Part shown: positions 15,657 to 22,066 of the stretch, piece after piece
Layout: the number at the start of each line of letters is the position of its first letter
How positions within the stretch are numbered: the stretch's first letter is position 1
Virus genome (UHGV): UHGV-2167857
Direction: 5' to 3' (one strand)
From: a virus
Length of the DNA stretch: 27,935 nt
The notes under the pieces: generated by a model
Told to the model about the DNA's origin: nothing
What the model saw: only the letters and a program-made list of their open reading frames with translations
Databases searched by the model: none
Position numbers and translations under genes: made by a program

Positions 15657-16007
15657 TTAAAGCCCCATCGCAACAGCCAGGCAGACCGCTGCAACAATCA
15701 GTGCACGGCGGATTAACGCAGCAGAAAACACCAGGTGAAGGCCGGTCTGTACCGGGAAACGCCCTTCAGCCATCAGCCTGTCGTCATGTTTCAGGTACTG
15801 ACCGGGACGGGCTTTGGGGAAGAGCGAACGGTCAAGCCAGTAACCCAGCACTGCTGCCAGCGTGATGAGTGCCAGCTTGTAGATCACAACAGGCAGCTGC
15901 TGTGGTGAGACCAGAGCGATGGTGCCCAGCAACAGCACTGAGGTCAGCAGCCAGCCGCTGAGGCGAGGTTTTTTAACAGGGGGAATGAATTTTTTCAGGT
16001 TTTTCAT
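15657..16007 (-). CDS. Putative holin (three predicted TM helices)
   Basis: First gene of the late operon, directly upstream of the endolysin. Start placed at ATG 16007 with AAGGAG upstream; three hydrophobic helices. Confidence 0.55.
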   Translation of the reverse strand: MKNLKKFIPPVKKPRLSGWLLTSVLLLGTIALVSPQQLPVVIYKLALITLAAVLGYWLDRSLFPKARPGQYLKHDDRLMAEGRFPVQTGLHLVFSAALIRRALIVAAVCLAVAMGL

Positions 16008-16137
16008 GTGTGTCTCCTTATCTGGTGGAGACAGCATCACAAATACAGGGCGCGAAGGATTTTAAAGCGCGTTAAGAGAGCCGGGGATACGGGATGTGCA
16101 GGATAAACGATGAATTATTCACAGAGGAGAATACGAT
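16008..16137. promoter_or_regulatory. Divergent intergenic region: probable late-operon promoter (leftward) and promoter of the P-loop gene (rightward)
   Basis: 130-bp non-coding gap between two divergent genes with good SDs; the only sizeable non-coding DNA at the head of the late operon. Confidence 0.35.
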
Positions 16138-16614
16138 ATGACGCACACACTGAATCCGGTCATCACTGTCACTGTGTCCGGTCCTGTGGGCAGCGGTAAA
16201 AGTTACGTACTGGCGCGGATAGAAGAGATGGTGAAACAGGAACTCGGAAACAGCGTCATTGTCGATGCTGCTGACGTGGAGAATGAGCGCCGTATGAATG
16301 GCGAAGATCTGACGACCTGGCAGAAGCCACGGGGTGGCACAGTGATCAGGCTAGAGGAATACACGGGACAGGGCCTGTTGTCATACGGCGAGGAGCGTAT
16401 CTGTCGGACGAATGAGCTGCTGGATGTTATATGCCCCACGGGCCGGCAACCCTGGATACTGCCCGATGCACTGCATGCCACCATTGCGGCACTGATGACA
16501 GTTTACGATCAGGAGCTGCTCATGAAGGAGTTACGTAAACTCACCGGTCAGCCAACAGAATGTTGTTCGTCTCCGAAGTACGGCAAACAGGAAAACGCCC
16601 CGGATAATCCTTAA
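16138..16614 (+). CDS. Small P-loop protein of unknown function
   Basis: Strong SD (GAGGAG) before the ATG; Walker A-like GPVGSGKS at residues 15-22, then a hhhhD-like stretch SVIVDAAD about 20 residues later. Confidence 0.5.
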   Translation: MTHTLNPVITVTVSGPVGSGKSYVLARIEEMVKQELGNSVIVDAADVENERRMNGEDLTTWQKPRGGTVIRLEEYTGQGLLSYGEERICRTNELLDVICPTGRQPWILPDALHATIAALMTVYDQELLMKELRKLTGQPTECCSSPKYGKQENAPDNP

Positions 16615-16620
16615 GATACC

Positions 16621-16652
16621 TCCTGAACAGAAACAGCCCTGAAGGGCTGCAC
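16621..16652 (-). terminator. Probable intrinsic terminator of the repressor operon
   Basis: Perfect 6-bp GC-rich stem (CAGCCC / GGGCTG, plus 16634-16649) with 4-nt loop, 2 nt after the 16652 stop, followed on the minus strand by UUUCUGUUC. Confidence 0.45.
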
Positions 16653-17239
16653 TAAAAAAAGAAGTGTATTATTGCCCAAACAGCTATAACGATGATTCCC
16701 AGCCCAAGAGCCGATTCTAACTTATCTTTGGCAGTCATTTTTACTGTTGTAGCGGGCGCAGGTAAGTCTTGCTGCTGTGGATTTTCTGTTAGTTGTTTAC
16801 GAGAAGAAACATCGCCCCTATTAGTTTGCTTCATGTTGATTACAGATGCGTTATGGGCATTATCAGCAGCAATTGACTGAAGTTTTACAAAAGTTTTTGA
16901 ATCTGTTTTAGCCAGAAGTAACCTATTTCCCGTAAACATTGCCTTAAAAGTGATAGTTTTTTTCGTCTTGTCCGCCGCACCAAGCAAACCTCCAATGACC
17001 AACCCTGCACCACCAAAGATTAATCCACCAAGCAAACCTGCGCCTGCCGCCTTACCTATACGGCTTTCCTCTTCACTATCCGCAAGTTCAATCGATAAAA
17101 GCTCTTCTTTCAGATTTAATACAATATTTTCAGGAAAGCCTTGTTTTGGTTTTTTGGCAAACACGATGGTACCGAACCCCATGCTTGCCCACCCTTTAGG
17201 AAAACTTCCTGCGATAACCTGAATCCCTGCCATGTTCAT
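16652..17239 (-). CDS. Glycine-zipper membrane protein, unknown function (cargo)
   Basis: Central motif GAGLLGGLIFGGAGLVIGGLLGA and C-terminal TM (LGLGIIVIAVWAIIHFFF); AT-rich; last gene of the repressor transcription unit. Confidence 0.5.
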   Translation of the reverse strand: MNMAGIQVIAGSFPKGWASMGFGTIVFAKKPKQGFPENIVLNLKEELLSIELADSEEESRIGKAAGAGLLGGLIFGGAGLVIGGLLGAADKTKKTITFKAMFTGNRLLLAKTDSKTFVKLQSIAADNAHNASVINMKQTNRGDVSSRKQLTENPQQQDLPAPATTVKMTAKDKLESALGLGIIVIAVWAIIHFFF

Positions 17240-17323
17240 CACCTTTTACATTAAAATTTCAGAACGCAGCATGATGCCGCCTTTGTCTTTTTTCTGATCC
17301 CATGGTAATTCAGCTGTTATTTT

Positions 17324-18310
17324 CTATTTAAGAATAAAACGGTATTTACTGTCAGGAGTGCTTTGCTGATCAAGTAGCAGTGAACGACATGGAGCAGTCA
17401 AAACCCGAGCATAACTACCATCAGGGCTTATGTTAATGTAACAAACCTTGCCCTTAACACTATAATTTTCGGGGACGGATGCCTTTGCTGATACAGTAAA
17501 TTTAAGGGTATGCCAGCCCGTTTTTTGCTTGTAGCTTGAAACCGAATGGAAATCATCTGAGTACTTATTTAACCCTGGAAACATGCTGCGCAGTGCGGGG
17601 ATGGAATCTTCTATTATTTTATTGTTGGTTTTAATGTTAAAAACGCTGGTTTCAGTAGAAGCTACTGCTTTGGCATTTCCCCATTTACCAGCGAACACAA
17701 TCATTCCCACGAAAAATATTGCTACAAGAACTAACACTCCCCCCAACACTACTACATGAGGCTTCCGGCTTCTGGTTGGTACAGTTGCGACTGATTTTGC
17801 ACCGCTTTCCGATGGAGGTGATAGAGTTTTACTCTCATCACGAATATTCAGCAGATCATCAAAATAACCAAACACAGCCTGCAACTGCTCTTTGTCTAGG
17901 CCTTTAAGATGGGTTGTACCGAAATGCTTCAGACAGTATCTGTCACGGTCAAGACGATACCCAGGGTCAGTAAGCGCCATTATTTTGCTGACCAGAAGAT
18001 TACAGTCCTTCATATTCTGGATCTGTTGTGCATATCTCTGAAGGATCTCAACCGCACCATGATAATCAGCCGCAGTCATTTCATTAACTGTTTTGGTATT
18101 AAGTTTCGTGTGGATCGTCATCCATAGCTCGCGCTTACTTTCCCCCAGATCAACCAATTCATCCATCAATCTGTGTAAATCGCGTTTTTGCAGCAACGAA
18201 ATTGGTTGCTGGGCCGAAGGAAGTATGTCAGCAGAATAGTTATGAATGGTAACATCACCGCTGACAACGTTACCCACATCCCCGTTAACTGTTTGCTTCT
18301 CTTTACTCAT
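17324..18310 (-). CDS. Bitopic membrane protein, unknown function (cargo; N-in/C-out predicted)
   Basis: 328 aa; start ATGA-overlaps the repressor stop. N-terminal soluble domain of about 175 aa, one TM (HVVVLGGVLVLVAIFFVGMIVFAGKW) with basic residues before it, then a C-terminal domain of about 125 aa; AT-rich. Confidence 0.5.
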   Translation of the reverse strand: MSKEKQTVNGDVGNVVSGDVTIHNYSADILPSAQQPISLLQKRDLHRLMDELVDLGESKRELWMTIHTKLNTKTVNEMTAADYHGAVEILQRYAQQIQNMKDCNLLVSKIMALTDPGYRLDRDRYCLKHFGTTHLKGLDKEQLQAVFGYFDDLLNIRDESKTLSPPSESGAKSVATVPTRSRKPHVVVLGGVLVLVAIFFVGMIVFAGKWGNAKAVASTETSVFNIKTNNKIIEDSIPALRSMFPGLNKYSDDFHSVSSYKQKTGWHTLKFTVSAKASVPENYSVKGKVCYINISPDGSYARVLTAPCRSLLLDQQSTPDSKYRFILK

Positions 18311-18768
18311 CTTCTCTTGGTATTTTTGTTCATTATTCCACCTGTTCCTATGGTTACGTTACCTTTGATAACATTCCCCAGAACATCTCCATGAATAACC
18401 TGTTCCGCCCGTTCTCTGGAGGAGCCAGTAGTCAAGGCCGACAAAACTGAACCTTTGACCTGTAATGGTGCCTGCCGGTAGTGCTGCAGTAACTCCATTT
18501 CATCACGTGATAAAGTTATACCTGATGACTCCCCGGTAAGAATGAACTGTACATTGGCCCCAATTCTTGCAAAGGCTGCAAGTAACTCACCTCCGGGAAC
18601 AGCAACCCCTCGTTCATATTTCCCCCACATTTCTCTTGAAACGCCACAAAGGGCTGCTACTTCAGCCTGCTTGAGTGATAACCGCGAACGCTCAGCTTTG
18701 AACCGCGACGCGCAAAGAGAATCAAAATTCACATAAACCTCATTGACAATGAGAACAATAGTTCTCAT
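18307..18768 (-). CDS. Prophage repressor, HTH (XRE/Cro-C1-type)
   Basis: N-terminal HTH (LSLKQAEVAALCGVSREMWGKYERG); divergent from the early operon across about 50 bp. True start may be an internal GTG. Confidence 0.7.
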   Translation of the reverse strand: MRTIVLIVNEVYVNFDSLCASRFKAERSRLSLKQAEVAALCGVSREMWGKYERGVAVPGGELLAAFARIGANVQFILTGESSGITLSRDEMELLQHYRQAPLQVKGSVLSALTTGSSRERAEQVIHGDVLGNVIKGNVTIGTGGIMNKNTKRR

Positions 18769-18818
18769 AATCTATCACATATAAAACAAACATCATTGCA
18801 TCAACAAAGGAGACAACA
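18769..18818. promoter_or_regulatory. Divergent repressor / early-operon promoter-operator region
   Basis: Only about 50 bp of AT-rich DNA between the repressor start and the Ner-like start (SD AAGGAG), so operators probably extend into flanking coding sequence. Confidence 0.4.
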
Positions 18819-19007
18819 ATGACTTCCGAACAAGTTAAAAATCTCTTCCGTCAGCGTGGTATCACGTTTACCCGCTGGGCCGAAGAACACGGCTACAGCC
18901 GCAATGAGGTCTATCGTGTTCTCAATGGACAGACCAAAGCTCGTTACGGCAAAGCCCATGAAATTGCCGTAAAACTGGGATTAAAACCCACGTCAAATGC
19001 GGCATAA
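18819..19007 (+). CDS. Ner-like small DNA-binding protein (first early gene)
   Basis: 62-aa basic protein with HTH-like core (FTRWAEEHGYSRNEVYRVLNG) in the Ner position. Similarity to Mu Ner is positional and loose. Confidence 0.5.
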   Translation: MTSEQVKNLFRQRGITFTRWAEEHGYSRNEVYRVLNGQTKARYGKAHEIAVKLGLKPTSNAA

Positions 19008-19059
19008 ATTTTCCACATATGCAACAGGTTATCACATATTGCAAAAATGGAAATGTGAC

Positions 19060-19368
19060 ATGAGTAAAGTAAATATTTCCAGTTCTGGGACCCGCATCCT
19101 ACGTGTACTCAAAGCTCTACGCGGTCATGCTCTGAACGGTGTTTCTAACGGTGAACTGGCATCAGCCCTGGGGGAGTCCCCAGCGAATATCAATCGAGCA
19201 CTTAATACCCTTATTGAAGAGGGACTGGCCATGAAATTAGAGAACGGACGTTTCGCACCGGGAATCCAGTTACTACAGATCGCCATGGCTCACAGTCACG
19301 AGATGGCGCGTGCACAGGATCGTATTAACGAAATCAACCAACGAGTTATTTCAGGTAGTCGTTTGTAA
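19060..19368 (+). CDS. Winged-helix DNA-binding protein (MarR/IclR-like HTH), unknown role
   Basis: The track ORF starts earlier; ATG at 19060 gives a 102-aa protein with a wHTH-like segment (ILRVLKALRGHALNGVSNGELASALGESPANINRALNTLIEEGLA). Confidence 0.45.
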   Translation: MSKVNISSSGTRILRVLKALRGHALNGVSNGELASALGESPANINRALNTLIEEGLAMKLENGRFAPGIQLLQIAMAHSHEMARAQDRINEINQRVISGSRL

Positions 19369-20296: not shown

Positions 20297-22066
20297 ATGA
20301 ATGCTGCCCTGACTGAACGACTGGTTTATGTCGCCCGCGCGGCACGTGACGCGGGGCATGGTAAACGCGGTGCAATATACGACGCTGCCTGTGCTGAACT
20401 TGGCATGTCCCGCGCCACTCTGCTGCGCAGGCTGAAGGAGGTCTCTGTGACTGATAAACGCAAAAAACGCGCTGATGCCGGACGCAGCGCCCTGACCCGC
20501 GACGAAGCCGCGCTGATATCTGCCACACTGCGTGAGGCCACCCGCAAGAACGGTAAACGCCTCTATTCCATCGCAGATGCAGTGGAAACCCTGCGGGCTA
20601 ACGGCTTTATCACCGCAGGCAGAACAGATGAAACCACCGGTGAGTTTTTCCCGTTGTCTGAAGATGCCATCAGCCGTGCTCTGCGTAACTATGGCCTGCA
20701 CCCGGAACAACTGGATGCTCCTGCACCGCATACCGAAGTGGCCAGTCTGCACCCCAATCATGTCTGGCAGATTGACGCCTCACTCTGCACGCTTTACTAC
20801 CTGAGCAATGGACATAAAGGGCTGCAGGTGATGGACAGCGCGAAGTTCTACAAGAACAAGCCCGCTAACCTTGCCCGTATCGCCAGTGACCGCGTGTGGA
20901 GTTACGAGATTACCGACCATGCCAGCGGCTGGATTTACGTTGAGTATGTGACGGGCGCGGAATCAGGTGAGAACCTGTGTTCTGTGCTTATCAACGCCAT
21001 GCAGGAGCGTGGCGGCGCAGACGTGCTGCACGGCGTGCCGAAAATACTCTATCTCGACCCCGGCTCGGCAAACACCGCGGGTATGACGAAAAACATGTGC
21101 CGCTCACTGGGCATCGACCTGATAGCGCACAAGCCGCATAACGCCCGCGCCACCGGACAGGTGGAAAAGGCGCGGGACATTATCGAACGCAAGCTGGAGC
21201 CGGGTCTGAAGTTCCGGCCGGTTCACAGTCTGGAAGAACTCAATGCGCTGGCCGCGAAATGGCGCAGCCACTTTAACGCCACGGCTGTTCACAGCCGCCA
21301 CGGTAAAACCCGCACGGATATCTGGCTGAAGATTACTGCTGAGCAGCTGAAAAAAGCGCCTTCCGTTGAGGTATGTCGTGAACTGGCTGTGGCGGCACCA
21401 GAACTCCGCAAAGTCACGCCAAAACTTCGTGTCTCGTTCCGGGGCACTGAATTTGACGTATCAACGGTACCGGGCGTACTGGTCGGTGAAAAACTGATGA
21501 TTACCCGTAACCCGTGGCGCAGCGATGTGGCACAGGTGGTTCTGACCGGTGAGGACGGCCACGAGACGTTCTTCCTGGTCGAAGAAGTCAGAAAGAACGA
21601 GTTTGGCTTTGCTGAAGGCGCGGCGGTATTTGGCGAAAGTTACAAAGCCCTGCCGGAAACCCCGGCGCAGATGGCGGCAAAAGAAACCGAAGCGCTGGTC
21701 ACCGGTACAGACAACGCCGCAGATGCAGCTGCCGCACGCAAGGCGAAGGCGCTGCCGTTCGGCGGGCGGCTTGACCCATATAAACATATTGATGACGCCA
21801 CACTTCCGGCCTATATGCCGAAGCGAGGTCAGGCCTCTGACGTACGCGGGCCGCGCACTGAACAACGTCCCATGACTCATGTGGAGGCCGCGAAAGCCCT
21901 GCGCGATAAGTTCAGCGCCGACGGCCTTACCTGGACGCCGGAACATTACCGCCAGTTAACGGCACAGTATCCGGACGGCGTACCGGAAGCCGCACTGGAT
22001 GAAGTCATGGCCACGCTGACCACGCCGGCCCGCAGCAGCGTTATCAGCATTGTTAACGGCAACTGA
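20297..22066 (+). CDS. DDE transposase, rve/integrase-core type (phage transposase A analogue)
   Basis: 589 aa. N-terminal HTH-like region, then candidate catalytic acidic residues in HVWQIDAS, LYLDPGS and ATGQVEKARDIIE. Shorter than and unlike MuA; paired with a downstream ATPase. Confidence 0.85.
   Translation: MNAALTERLVYVARAARDAGHGKRGAIYDAACAELGMSRATLLRRLKEVSVTDKRKKRADAGRSALTRDEAALISATLREATRKNGKRLYSIADAVETLRANGFITAGRTDETTGEFFPLSEDAISRALRNYGLHPEQLDAPAPHTEVASLHPNHVWQIDASLCTLYYLSNGHKGLQVMDSAKFYKNKPANLARIASDRVWSYEITDHASGWIYVEYVTGAESGENLCSVLINAMQERGGADVLHGVPKILYLDPGSANTAGMTKNMCRSLGIDLIAHKPHNARATGQVEKARDIIERKLEPGLKFRPVHSLEELNALAAKWRSHFNATAVHSRHGKTRTDIWLKITAEQLKKAPSVEVCRELAVAAPELRKVTPKLRVSFRGTEFDVSTVPGVLVGEKLMITRNPWRSDVAQVVLTGEDGHETFFLVEEVRKNEFGFAEGAAVFGESYKALPETPAQMAAKETEALVTGTDNAADAAAARKAKALPFGGRLDPYKHIDDATLPAYMPKRGQASDVRGPRTEQRPMTHVEAAKALRDKFSADGLTWTPEHYRQLTAQYPDGVPEAALDEVMATLTTPARSSVISIVNGN

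Follow-up and report, generated by a model that had tools for sequence, protein, structure and literature searches.

A prophage repressor and an adjacent Flk_N membrane protein with matching terminal motifs in an exchangeable immunity cassette of Escherichia coli

The DNA analyzed here, a stretch of 27,935 nucleotides (nt) of the virus genome UHGV-2167857, hereafter called the window, comes from a transposable prophage of Escherichia coli of the BcepMu-like type (Bcepmuvirus). In the interval 16652-18768 a repressor gene is followed on the same strand by two genes encoding membrane proteins. The unit had been interpreted in a preliminary description, made from the sequence alone, as a candidate exclusion or abortive-infection module of the lambda cI-rexA-rexB kind. 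It is reported here that the repressor and the first membrane protein, which belongs to the Flk_N family, form a widespread and unannotated module featuring matching terminal motifs, and that the third gene is an independent, unrelated cargo cassette that would be expressed in the lysogen. The features of the interval are listed below, in window coordinates; protein lengths are in amino acids (aa).

18307-18768, minus strand: XRE-type helix-turn-helix (HTH) repressor, 153 aa as annotated (HTH_31, E 4.7e-7; phrog_8; RefSeq annotation)
18732, minus strand: alternative GTG start of the repressor, giving 141 aa and annotated so in other strains
18349-18414, minus strand: C-terminal motif of the repressor (residues 119-140), a mimic of the N-terminal end of the protein encoded next: RAEQVIHGDVLGNVIKGNVTI, with a basic tail after it
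17324-18310, minus strand: 328-aa single-pass membrane protein (phrog_10002; Flk_N)
18245-18304, minus strand: N-terminal motif of the 328-aa protein, residues 3-22, KEKQTVNGDVGNVVSGDVTI, nearly invariant in the family
17831-18223, minus strand: Flk_N-type helical domain, about residues 30-160, cytoplasmic
17699-17755, minus strand: transmembrane (TM) helix, residues 186-204, Kyte-Doolittle value 3.05
17327-17638, minus strand: alpha/beta domain on the periplasmic side (about residues 225-328; two conserved cysteines), modeled by AlphaFold2 (AF2) at a predicted local distance difference test (pLDDT) score of ~90
16652-17233 (193 aa, from ATG) or 16652-17242 (196 aa, from GTG), minus strand: third gene (phrog_12025)
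16633-16650, minus strand: intrinsic-terminator-like hairpin GCAGCCC-TTCA-GGGCTGT, followed by the T-rich tract TTCTGTT; it closes the operon and faces a convergent 158-aa open reading frame (ORF)
18743-18771, plus strand: sigma-70-like early promoter TTGACA-17-CATAAT, predicted from its match to the consensus
18749-18766, plus strand: perfect palindrome TGAGAAC-AATA-GTTCTCA, located between the promoter hexamers

The stop codon of the repressor overlaps the start codon of the 328-aa gene in an ATGA, as noted in the preliminary description, which was similarly right in placing a hairpin terminator after the third gene. The hairpin is the sole terminator-like site in the 3.2 kb scanned (15900-19100). 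The third gene product is a glycine-zipper membrane protein, as had been claimed, its hydropathy profile revealing a zipper at residues 66-84 and a C-terminal anchor at residues 175-193. Its length has to be corrected from 196 to 193 aa, the ATG at 17233 being favored by the RefSeq annotation and by an AAGGTGA ribosome-binding site. The repressor gene is divergent from the early operon that carries the ner-like and transposase genes, and alternative repressors hold the same position in related prophages. The palindrome between the promoter hexamers is a probable operator. Since the annotated ATG of the repressor (18768) falls inside it, translation may really begin at the GTG at 18732, which yields a 141-aa protein. 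A unit organized in this way, with a repressor in front, all genes on one strand and a terminator at the end, would be expressed in the lysogen.

In its tail (residues 119-140) the repressor resembles the N-terminal residues 3-22 of the 328-aa protein (KEKQTVNGDV-GNVVSGDVTI), and this is the top local alignment of the two full-length proteins. The alignment score, 55, was reached in 4 out of 5000 shuffles of the repressor, and in none of 5000 shuffles restricted to the tail. The match has been evaluated also in ten diverse loci, the window and nine others chosen for their divergent motifs (seven BcepMu-like, one P2-like, one integrase-bearing). The Flk_N proteins from these loci are ~20-30% identical to that of the window, yet each repressor tail resembles its own partner. 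Examples of cognate tails and partners are FNGDISGQFAGNQIIN / FNGTAQGQFSSRDIIN, QVFHGKVGQSIAGNV / QVFREDVGQAVAGDL and SGNASRIAGRDF / GGDNNRIAGRDF. Cognate scores sum up to 468 over the ten pairs, vs 323 +/- 33 for permuted pairs (p = 4e-5). Identical residues in the motifs share the codon in 42 cases out of 94, and nucleotide identity ranges from 48 to 67%. As codons differ, the similarity is maintained at the protein and not at the DNA level. Recent gene conversion, or DNA duplication, between the motif-coding stretches has been rejected for the same reason. A frameshift or a fusion as origin of the two genes has been rejected as well, their spacing varying from -4 to ~140 nt and one locus featuring an intervening ORF.

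The association of the two genes is strict. In all of the 105 examined loci that have a partner repressor (the ten diverse loci, and 95 from IMG/VR) the Flk_N gene is found behind a repressor of one and the same family. In each of the 95 IMG/VR loci the repressor ORF carries the motif, and ends from -4 to +15 nt from the start of the Flk_N gene. One class of loci belongs to P2/186-like prophages, in which the gene order is repressor, Flk_N protein, DUF2511 protein, integrase, and the two motifs fit the consensus sequences ...SGxGNRVAGRDYNENKK (repressor) and VNSxGxxNRxAGRDFxEN (membrane protein). The BcepMu-like form of the module was found in 127, and the P2/186-like form in 533, of 5426 complete E. 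coli genomes, O157:H7 being among the latter. All copies are annotated as hypothetical, and nothing on the repressor/Flk_N module was found in literature searches on Flk in prophages, on the repressor of BcepMu, on membrane-anchored antirepressors, on glycine zippers and on the RefSeq accessions. Repressors of 118, 138 and 121 aa, which occupy the same slot and have no Flk_N neighbor, lack the motif. Strain A33 hosts a hybrid repressor (locus L007, 3523-3945), in which the C-terminal half, beginning with GITLSRDEM, is unchanged while the HTH half is a different one, and which still overlaps the 328-aa gene. A recombination point is thus located inside the repressor gene, and the repressor tail travels with the membrane gene.

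The motifs could in principle be left over from an old duplication that crossed the boundary between the genes, the two genes being co-inherited by adjacency and having no functional link. The short distance of the motif-coding stretches, within ~100 nt in most loci (an exception is L017, where an 88-aa ORF is interposed), is in line with this hypothesis, and so is the partial dependence of the cognate signal on clade structure. A relic is nonetheless very unlikely, because the similarity has outlasted the divergence of the remaining sequence to ~20-30% identity and is carried by different codons, because the HTH half may be swapped while the tail stays, as in A33, and because the linkage holds in 95 out of 95 loci across two unrelated phage types.

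The 328-aa protein had been said to match nothing recognizable, as had the third gene product. No family was indeed hit significantly in the local Pfam-A and PADLOC scans; both proteins have PHROG counterparts, and both could be assigned to Pfam families, Flk_N (PF27202) and PH_gly_zipper (PF27000). The 328-aa protein matches over its full length phrog_10002, a PHROG with no assigned function. The local copy of Pfam does not include the PF27202 model; membership in Flk_N was established from precomputed annotations, carried by a 99%-identical cluster (P0001) and by many relatives, from near-identical to distant, and from a match of residues 19-147 to the NCBIfam Flk model (E 2.9e-12, 46.5 bits). 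The protein is a relative of Flk and not an equivalog, since the match is confined to these residues and falls below the 353-bit cut-off of the NCBIfam model (PRK10715). BLASTP comparison to Flk of E. coli K-12 revealed 25% identity over 133 aa. Distant Flk_N relatives carry variant forms of the N-terminal motif. The host flk gene (L006, 5951-6946 in E. coli K-12) encodes two copies of the Flk_N-type domain. Host Flk also matches the GemA family of phage Mu weakly and below threshold (E 7e-4), a hint that the Flk_N domain may have originated in phages or be related to a phage domain.

The 328-aa protein is bitopic by hydropathy, which gives one TM helix, with four K/R residues before and two after it. 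A topology with the N-terminus inside and the C-terminus outside, as in the preliminary description, is supported by the finding that relatives of the C-domain are stand-alone lipoproteins or secreted proteins, and by the presence of two conserved cysteines. The AF2 monomer has pLDDT values of ~90 both in the helical region (residues 30-160) and in the alpha/beta region (residues 225-328). A profile search among 1.8 billion representatives retrieved 112 relatives. Most of them are proteins of ~200 aa, made by the N-domain and the TM helix; in a second group the C-domain alone is found behind a lipoprotein or signal sequence. At loci L011 and L016 the C-domain lipoprotein is encoded by a separate gene, immediately after the Flk_N-TM gene (E 8e-98 and 8e-46, respectively). 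The fusion found in the window thus joins two parts which also work as separate neighbors, and this too speaks for the topology given above. In a Serratia locus (L036, 3501-5162; identical to L014 and L037) a fused Flk_N-TM-C-domain protein is followed by a 175-aa lipoprotein, which carries a second copy of the C-domain. DUF2511 and other proteins encoded by third genes were considered as homologs of the periplasmic domain, and rejected. A profile search of PDB sequences returned no match.

Membrane proteins encoded beside repressors often exclude phages, as P22 SieA and lactococcal Sie2009. In this light, the 328-aa protein might be a lysogenic-conversion factor, which acts through its Flk_N domain on a host membrane machine, either flagellar type III export or the receptor and injection route of other phages, resulting in superinfection exclusion; the motif match would then be incidental. 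The homology to Flk spans ~130 residues, and the target of Flk is the switch in flagellar export (PMC13344023). The identity is as low as 25%, however, the score is far from the equivalog cut-off (46.5 vs 353 bits), host Flk has two domain copies and no N-terminal motif, and the conserved, pair-specific motif would be left unexplained. A conversion factor of this type is hence a highly improbable alternative.

Given strict linkage, translational coupling, pair-specific motifs and membrane topology, the reading preferred here is that the tail of the repressor directly contacts the cytoplasmic N-terminal end of its membrane partner, and that the Flk_N protein would thereby mediate an envelope-linked control of lysogeny. 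This interpretation is offered tentatively, as one falling somewhat short of probable. The two motifs would pair at the cytoplasmic face of the membrane, by homotypic contacts of the beta-strand or beta-solenoid type. The Flk_N protein, either with its own periplasmic domain or, elsewhere, with a separate lipoprotein, would tether, stabilize or inactivate the repressor on an envelope-side cue. In phages that lack a RecA-cleavable domain in their repressors, the lysis-lysogeny switch would in this way receive an input from the membrane. A precedent for the domain is provided by Flk, which is cytoplasmic, is held in the inner membrane by a single C-terminal helix and inhibits the flagellar export-specificity switch (PMC13344023), Flk_N serving there as a protein-interaction domain at the membrane face. 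The analysis itself shows the gene order and coupling, the domain content, indicators of topology, the motif match with its cognate specificity, the co-occurrence of the two genes and the independence of the third one; that the proteins bind, which way the repressor would be affected, what the signal would be and any phenotype are inferred.

Several observations weigh against such direct contact. In the AF2 monomer residues 1-29 and the linker are disordered, the N-terminal motif having a pLDDT of ~45. No fold match assigns a sensing function to the periplasmic domain. The cognate signal comes largely from a few motif classes (GDVGxV-, NRxAGRD- and GQF-type), and shared ancestry of adjacent segments therefore contributes to it. 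At locus L013, the sole exception seen, a Flk_N relative is found with no motif-bearing repressor nearby. A repressor inhibitor that is constitutively co-translated with its target would be counter-productive unless gated. Finally, the P2/186-like prophage of E. coli O157:H7 (L120, 99-329) also encodes a Tum-like 'derepression protein', which probably provides a classical SOS-linked antirepressor route besides; an induction route is thus probably already present in P2/186-like carriers.

In a bolder version of the direct-contact model, contact would turn into templating by amyloid-like or beta-solenoid stacking. An envelope cue would cluster the Flk_N protein, the N-terminal motif would nucleate the C-terminal motif of the repressor, and the repressor would leave solution, the whole resulting in a prion-like switch, for either induction or locking of immunity, which would be widespread in E. 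coli, O157:H7 P2/186-like prophages included. We consider templating unlikely.

The C-terminal tail of the phage Mu repressor governs sensitivity to ClpXP. The shared motif may similarly be a handle for a third party, be it a host protease or adaptor or a phage antirepressor, and the membrane protein may serve as a decoy or a sink, buffering the turnover of the repressor. In favor of this are the K/R-rich tracts with which repressor tails end, and the Tum-like derepression protein encoded by P2/186-like carriers. A conserved host factor, on the other hand, predicts one motif per host, whereas E. coli prophages hold different motif classes, matched within pairs, and the BcepMu-like cassette yielded no candidate for the third party. 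Little probability is accordingly left to this option.

The 193-aa protein encoded by the third gene matches phrog_12025, which has no assigned function, over its full length. PH_gly_zipper, a beta-rich PH-like domain interrupted by a glycine zipper, is precomputed on the 97%-identical relatives P0026 and P0027, and gives a weak match on P0032; the 193-aa protein is assigned to this family. Its AF2 model is unreliable (pLDDT 36), and the order of strands and helices fits PF27000. In two relatives, P0030 and P0031, in-frame deletions of 11 and 16 residues, respectively, occur inside the glycine zipper; they could result from slippage in a Gly-rich repeat, or from selection against a toxic segment.

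Among the 127 genomes hosting the 328-aa gene, 97 have also the 193-aa gene, and ~30 carry a different third gene, such as those encoding a 203-aa protein plus a DUF2441 protein; an 89-aa protein is found in a Salmonella relative. Conversely, BcepMu-like prophages, of Citrobacter among others, carry a PH_gly_zipper gene 71% identical to that of the window immediately downstream of an unrelated repressor of 121 aa, and have no Flk_N gene there. As each gene is found without the other, the two membrane proteins are not a pair. At the 89 of the 95 IMG/VR loci with a callable downstream ORF, the position after the Flk_N gene is filled by at least 15 unrelated families. DUF2511 proteins are found in 44 loci; other occupants are BRCT/WYL-like proteins, matching the PADLOC candidate PDC-S48. 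The variable slot genes of P2/186-like prophages include the following:

L096, 3148-4035: BRCT/WYL-like or other variable slot gene
L067, 3051-3947: BRCT/WYL-like or other variable slot gene
other IMG/VR loci: genes of the same kind

The third position is therefore a cargo slot, and the second is not. The preliminary description had suggested to look for variable cargo across related prophages; the comparison revealed it for the third gene, and not for the 328-aa gene, which is the fixed partner of one repressor family. Glycine zipper, tail anchor, independent mobility and location in a cargo slot fit a membrane-acting accessory protein; that the 193-aa protein may act in exclusion or abortive infection is a plausible guess from these sequence features.

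The genes that surround the cassette are those expected in a BcepMu-like prophage. A Mu-type transposase/ExeA early operon is divergent from the repressor, and holin/SLT and Mu-like head genes are located on the other arm; family matches in the early arm and in the lysis region are to the phrog_310 transposase, ExeA, DUF3102, Holin_2-3 and SLT.

15657-16040, minus strand: Holin_2-3 holin; late and lysis genes run up to here
16138-16614, plus strand: P-loop ORF, 158 of 242 aa (annotated 'ABC transporter ATPase'), a shortened copy of a phrog_3787 gene
from 18819, plus strand: early operon (ner-like HTH, IclR-like HTH, DUF3102, Mu-type transposase, ExeA)
20297-22066, plus strand: Mu-type transposase (phrog_310)

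Many E. coli chromosomes carry the same 3.8 kb at 99.9% identity. The genes are near-absent from the genomes of cultured phages; PhiKM (Bcepmuvirus), the nearest deposited phage, matches the flanks only, and a search for related loci among species-representative genomes retrieved a single locus. The interval 16652-18768 is an exchangeable immunity cassette of the prophage. Its flanks are common to 636 of the complete E. coli genomes, of which just 100 contain 80% or more of the query. The commonest alternative cassette comprises the 118-aa repressor, a Dam methylase and three small genes. In a second one the 138-aa repressor is followed by genes for a 297-aa and a 145-aa protein, the latter with four TM helices. 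An example is found in the E. coli PEC403 prophage (L010, 8872-10701), where neither the 297-aa nor the 145-aa protein has a significant Pfam or PADLOC match; the pair is another candidate two-gene module expressed in the lysogen. The 158-aa P-loop ORF corresponds, at 92% identity, to residues 1-157 encoded by the 242-aa gene, which is intact in PhiKM-type prophages. The ORF looks like a truncation scar, marking the left recombination edge of the cassette, and the step in G+C (GC) content falls at it. The higher AT content claimed for the two membrane genes was confirmed. The GC content is 0.459 for the repressor gene, 0.428 for the 328-aa gene and 0.421 for the 193-aa gene, against 0.545 for the window. 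Values just outside the cassette are 0.54-0.59 (158-aa ORF and holin on one side, transposase on the other), with intermediate values (0.48-0.51) for the neighboring ner-like, IclR-like and DUF3102 genes.

Glycine zippers are typical of membrane-perturbing proteins. The unit could accordingly be viewed as a two-component exclusion or abortive module, in which the 328-aa protein senses infection, and the 193-aa protein depolarizes the membrane. A repressor-led, lysogen-expressed unit with two membrane proteins and a terminator, carried by an AT-rich exchangeable cassette and having a slot sometimes filled by candidate defense genes, is compatible with the hypothesis. The profile searches for a Rex or defense identity were negative, however: neither protein matches RexA, RexB or any defense family in scans of Pfam-A (at E <= 0.1) and of the 5027 PADLOC models. 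The 328-aa and 193-aa genes are unlinked, as each occurs without the other, and both the motif common with the repressor and the strict linkage to the latter are left unexplained. A Rex-like function of the two proteins together is thus improbable. What stands of the Rex-like architecture initially proposed are the repressor-led operon and the variable last slot; homology, obligate pairing and the role envisaged for the 328-aa protein do not.

Most of the temperate switches that are understood rely on RecA-mediated cleavage, or on soluble antirepressors. The repressor described here has no recognizable cleavage domain, and is hard-wired to a protein that spans the inner membrane by translational coupling and by a pair-specific motif. 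Should the two proteins interact, the cell envelope, or the periplasm, would be linked to the lysogeny decision, and this would be the first case in which the logic of a C-terminal/N-terminal motif match in adjacent genes operates outside NLR-type immunity. The module is common: roughly one in ten complete E. coli genomes hosts it. The variable slot downstream of the pair is in addition a practical hunting ground for prophage cargo and candidate defense genes.

The cassette may be compared to various known systems. It shares with lambda cI-rexA-rexB a repressor-led, same-strand operon, accessory genes, probably expressed in the lysogen, that include one or more membrane proteins, a terminator and the organization in an exchangeable cassette. 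It differs because sequence similarity to RexA/RexB is missing, the downstream genes, occurring separately, are not an obligate sensor/membrane-effector pair, and the Rex proteins share no terminal motif with the repressor. Flk (Fluke/RflH) of Salmonella and E. coli has a homologous helical Flk_N domain, located at the cytoplasmic face, and a single TM helix (PMC13344023). In contrast to the phage protein, Flk has two domain copies, a Pro-rich N-terminus that lacks the motif and a C-terminal tail anchor, and has no periplasmic domain; its gene is chromosomal, and not beside a repressor.

Amyloid-signaling pairs, such as fungal HET-S/NWD2 and the bacterial BASS, among which the prophage Bab/Agp pair of E. 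coli (bioRxiv 10.1101/2024.11.07.622273; 10.1101/2020.01.06.895854), are similar in the match between short Gly/Asn/Val-rich motifs at the C-terminus and N-terminus of proteins encoded by adjacent genes. The match that defines BASS and HRAM pairs is found here too, and some Flk_N N-termini look by eye as if carrying two pseudo-repeats. The partners are different, being an XRE HTH repressor and a bitopic Flk_N membrane protein; no NLR/STAND, TPR sensor, NTPase or Bell/HeLo effector was found. As the partner domains are entirely different, the module has not been filed as a member of the amyloid-signaling family.

In pairs of the RseA-sigmaE type, a regulator is co-transcribed with a single-pass membrane protein, the cytoplasmic N-terminal part of which binds the regulator, while the periplasmic part may receive a signal. 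Membrane anti-sigma factors and their extracytoplasmic function (ECF) sigma partners resemble the repressor/Flk_N module in logic only. There is no homology, protease sites have not been identified, and the regulator is here a repressor that needs to be free for lysogeny, so that the sign of the control would differ. The superinfection-exclusion proteins P22 SieA (PMC10883804) and SieB, lactococcal Sie2009, Vibrio K139 Glo and HK97 gp15 display no detected sequence similarity to the products of the cassette. Being small membrane or periplasmic proteins expressed in the lysogen from the immunity region, they represent all the same the best analogy for the 193-aa gene and the variable slot.

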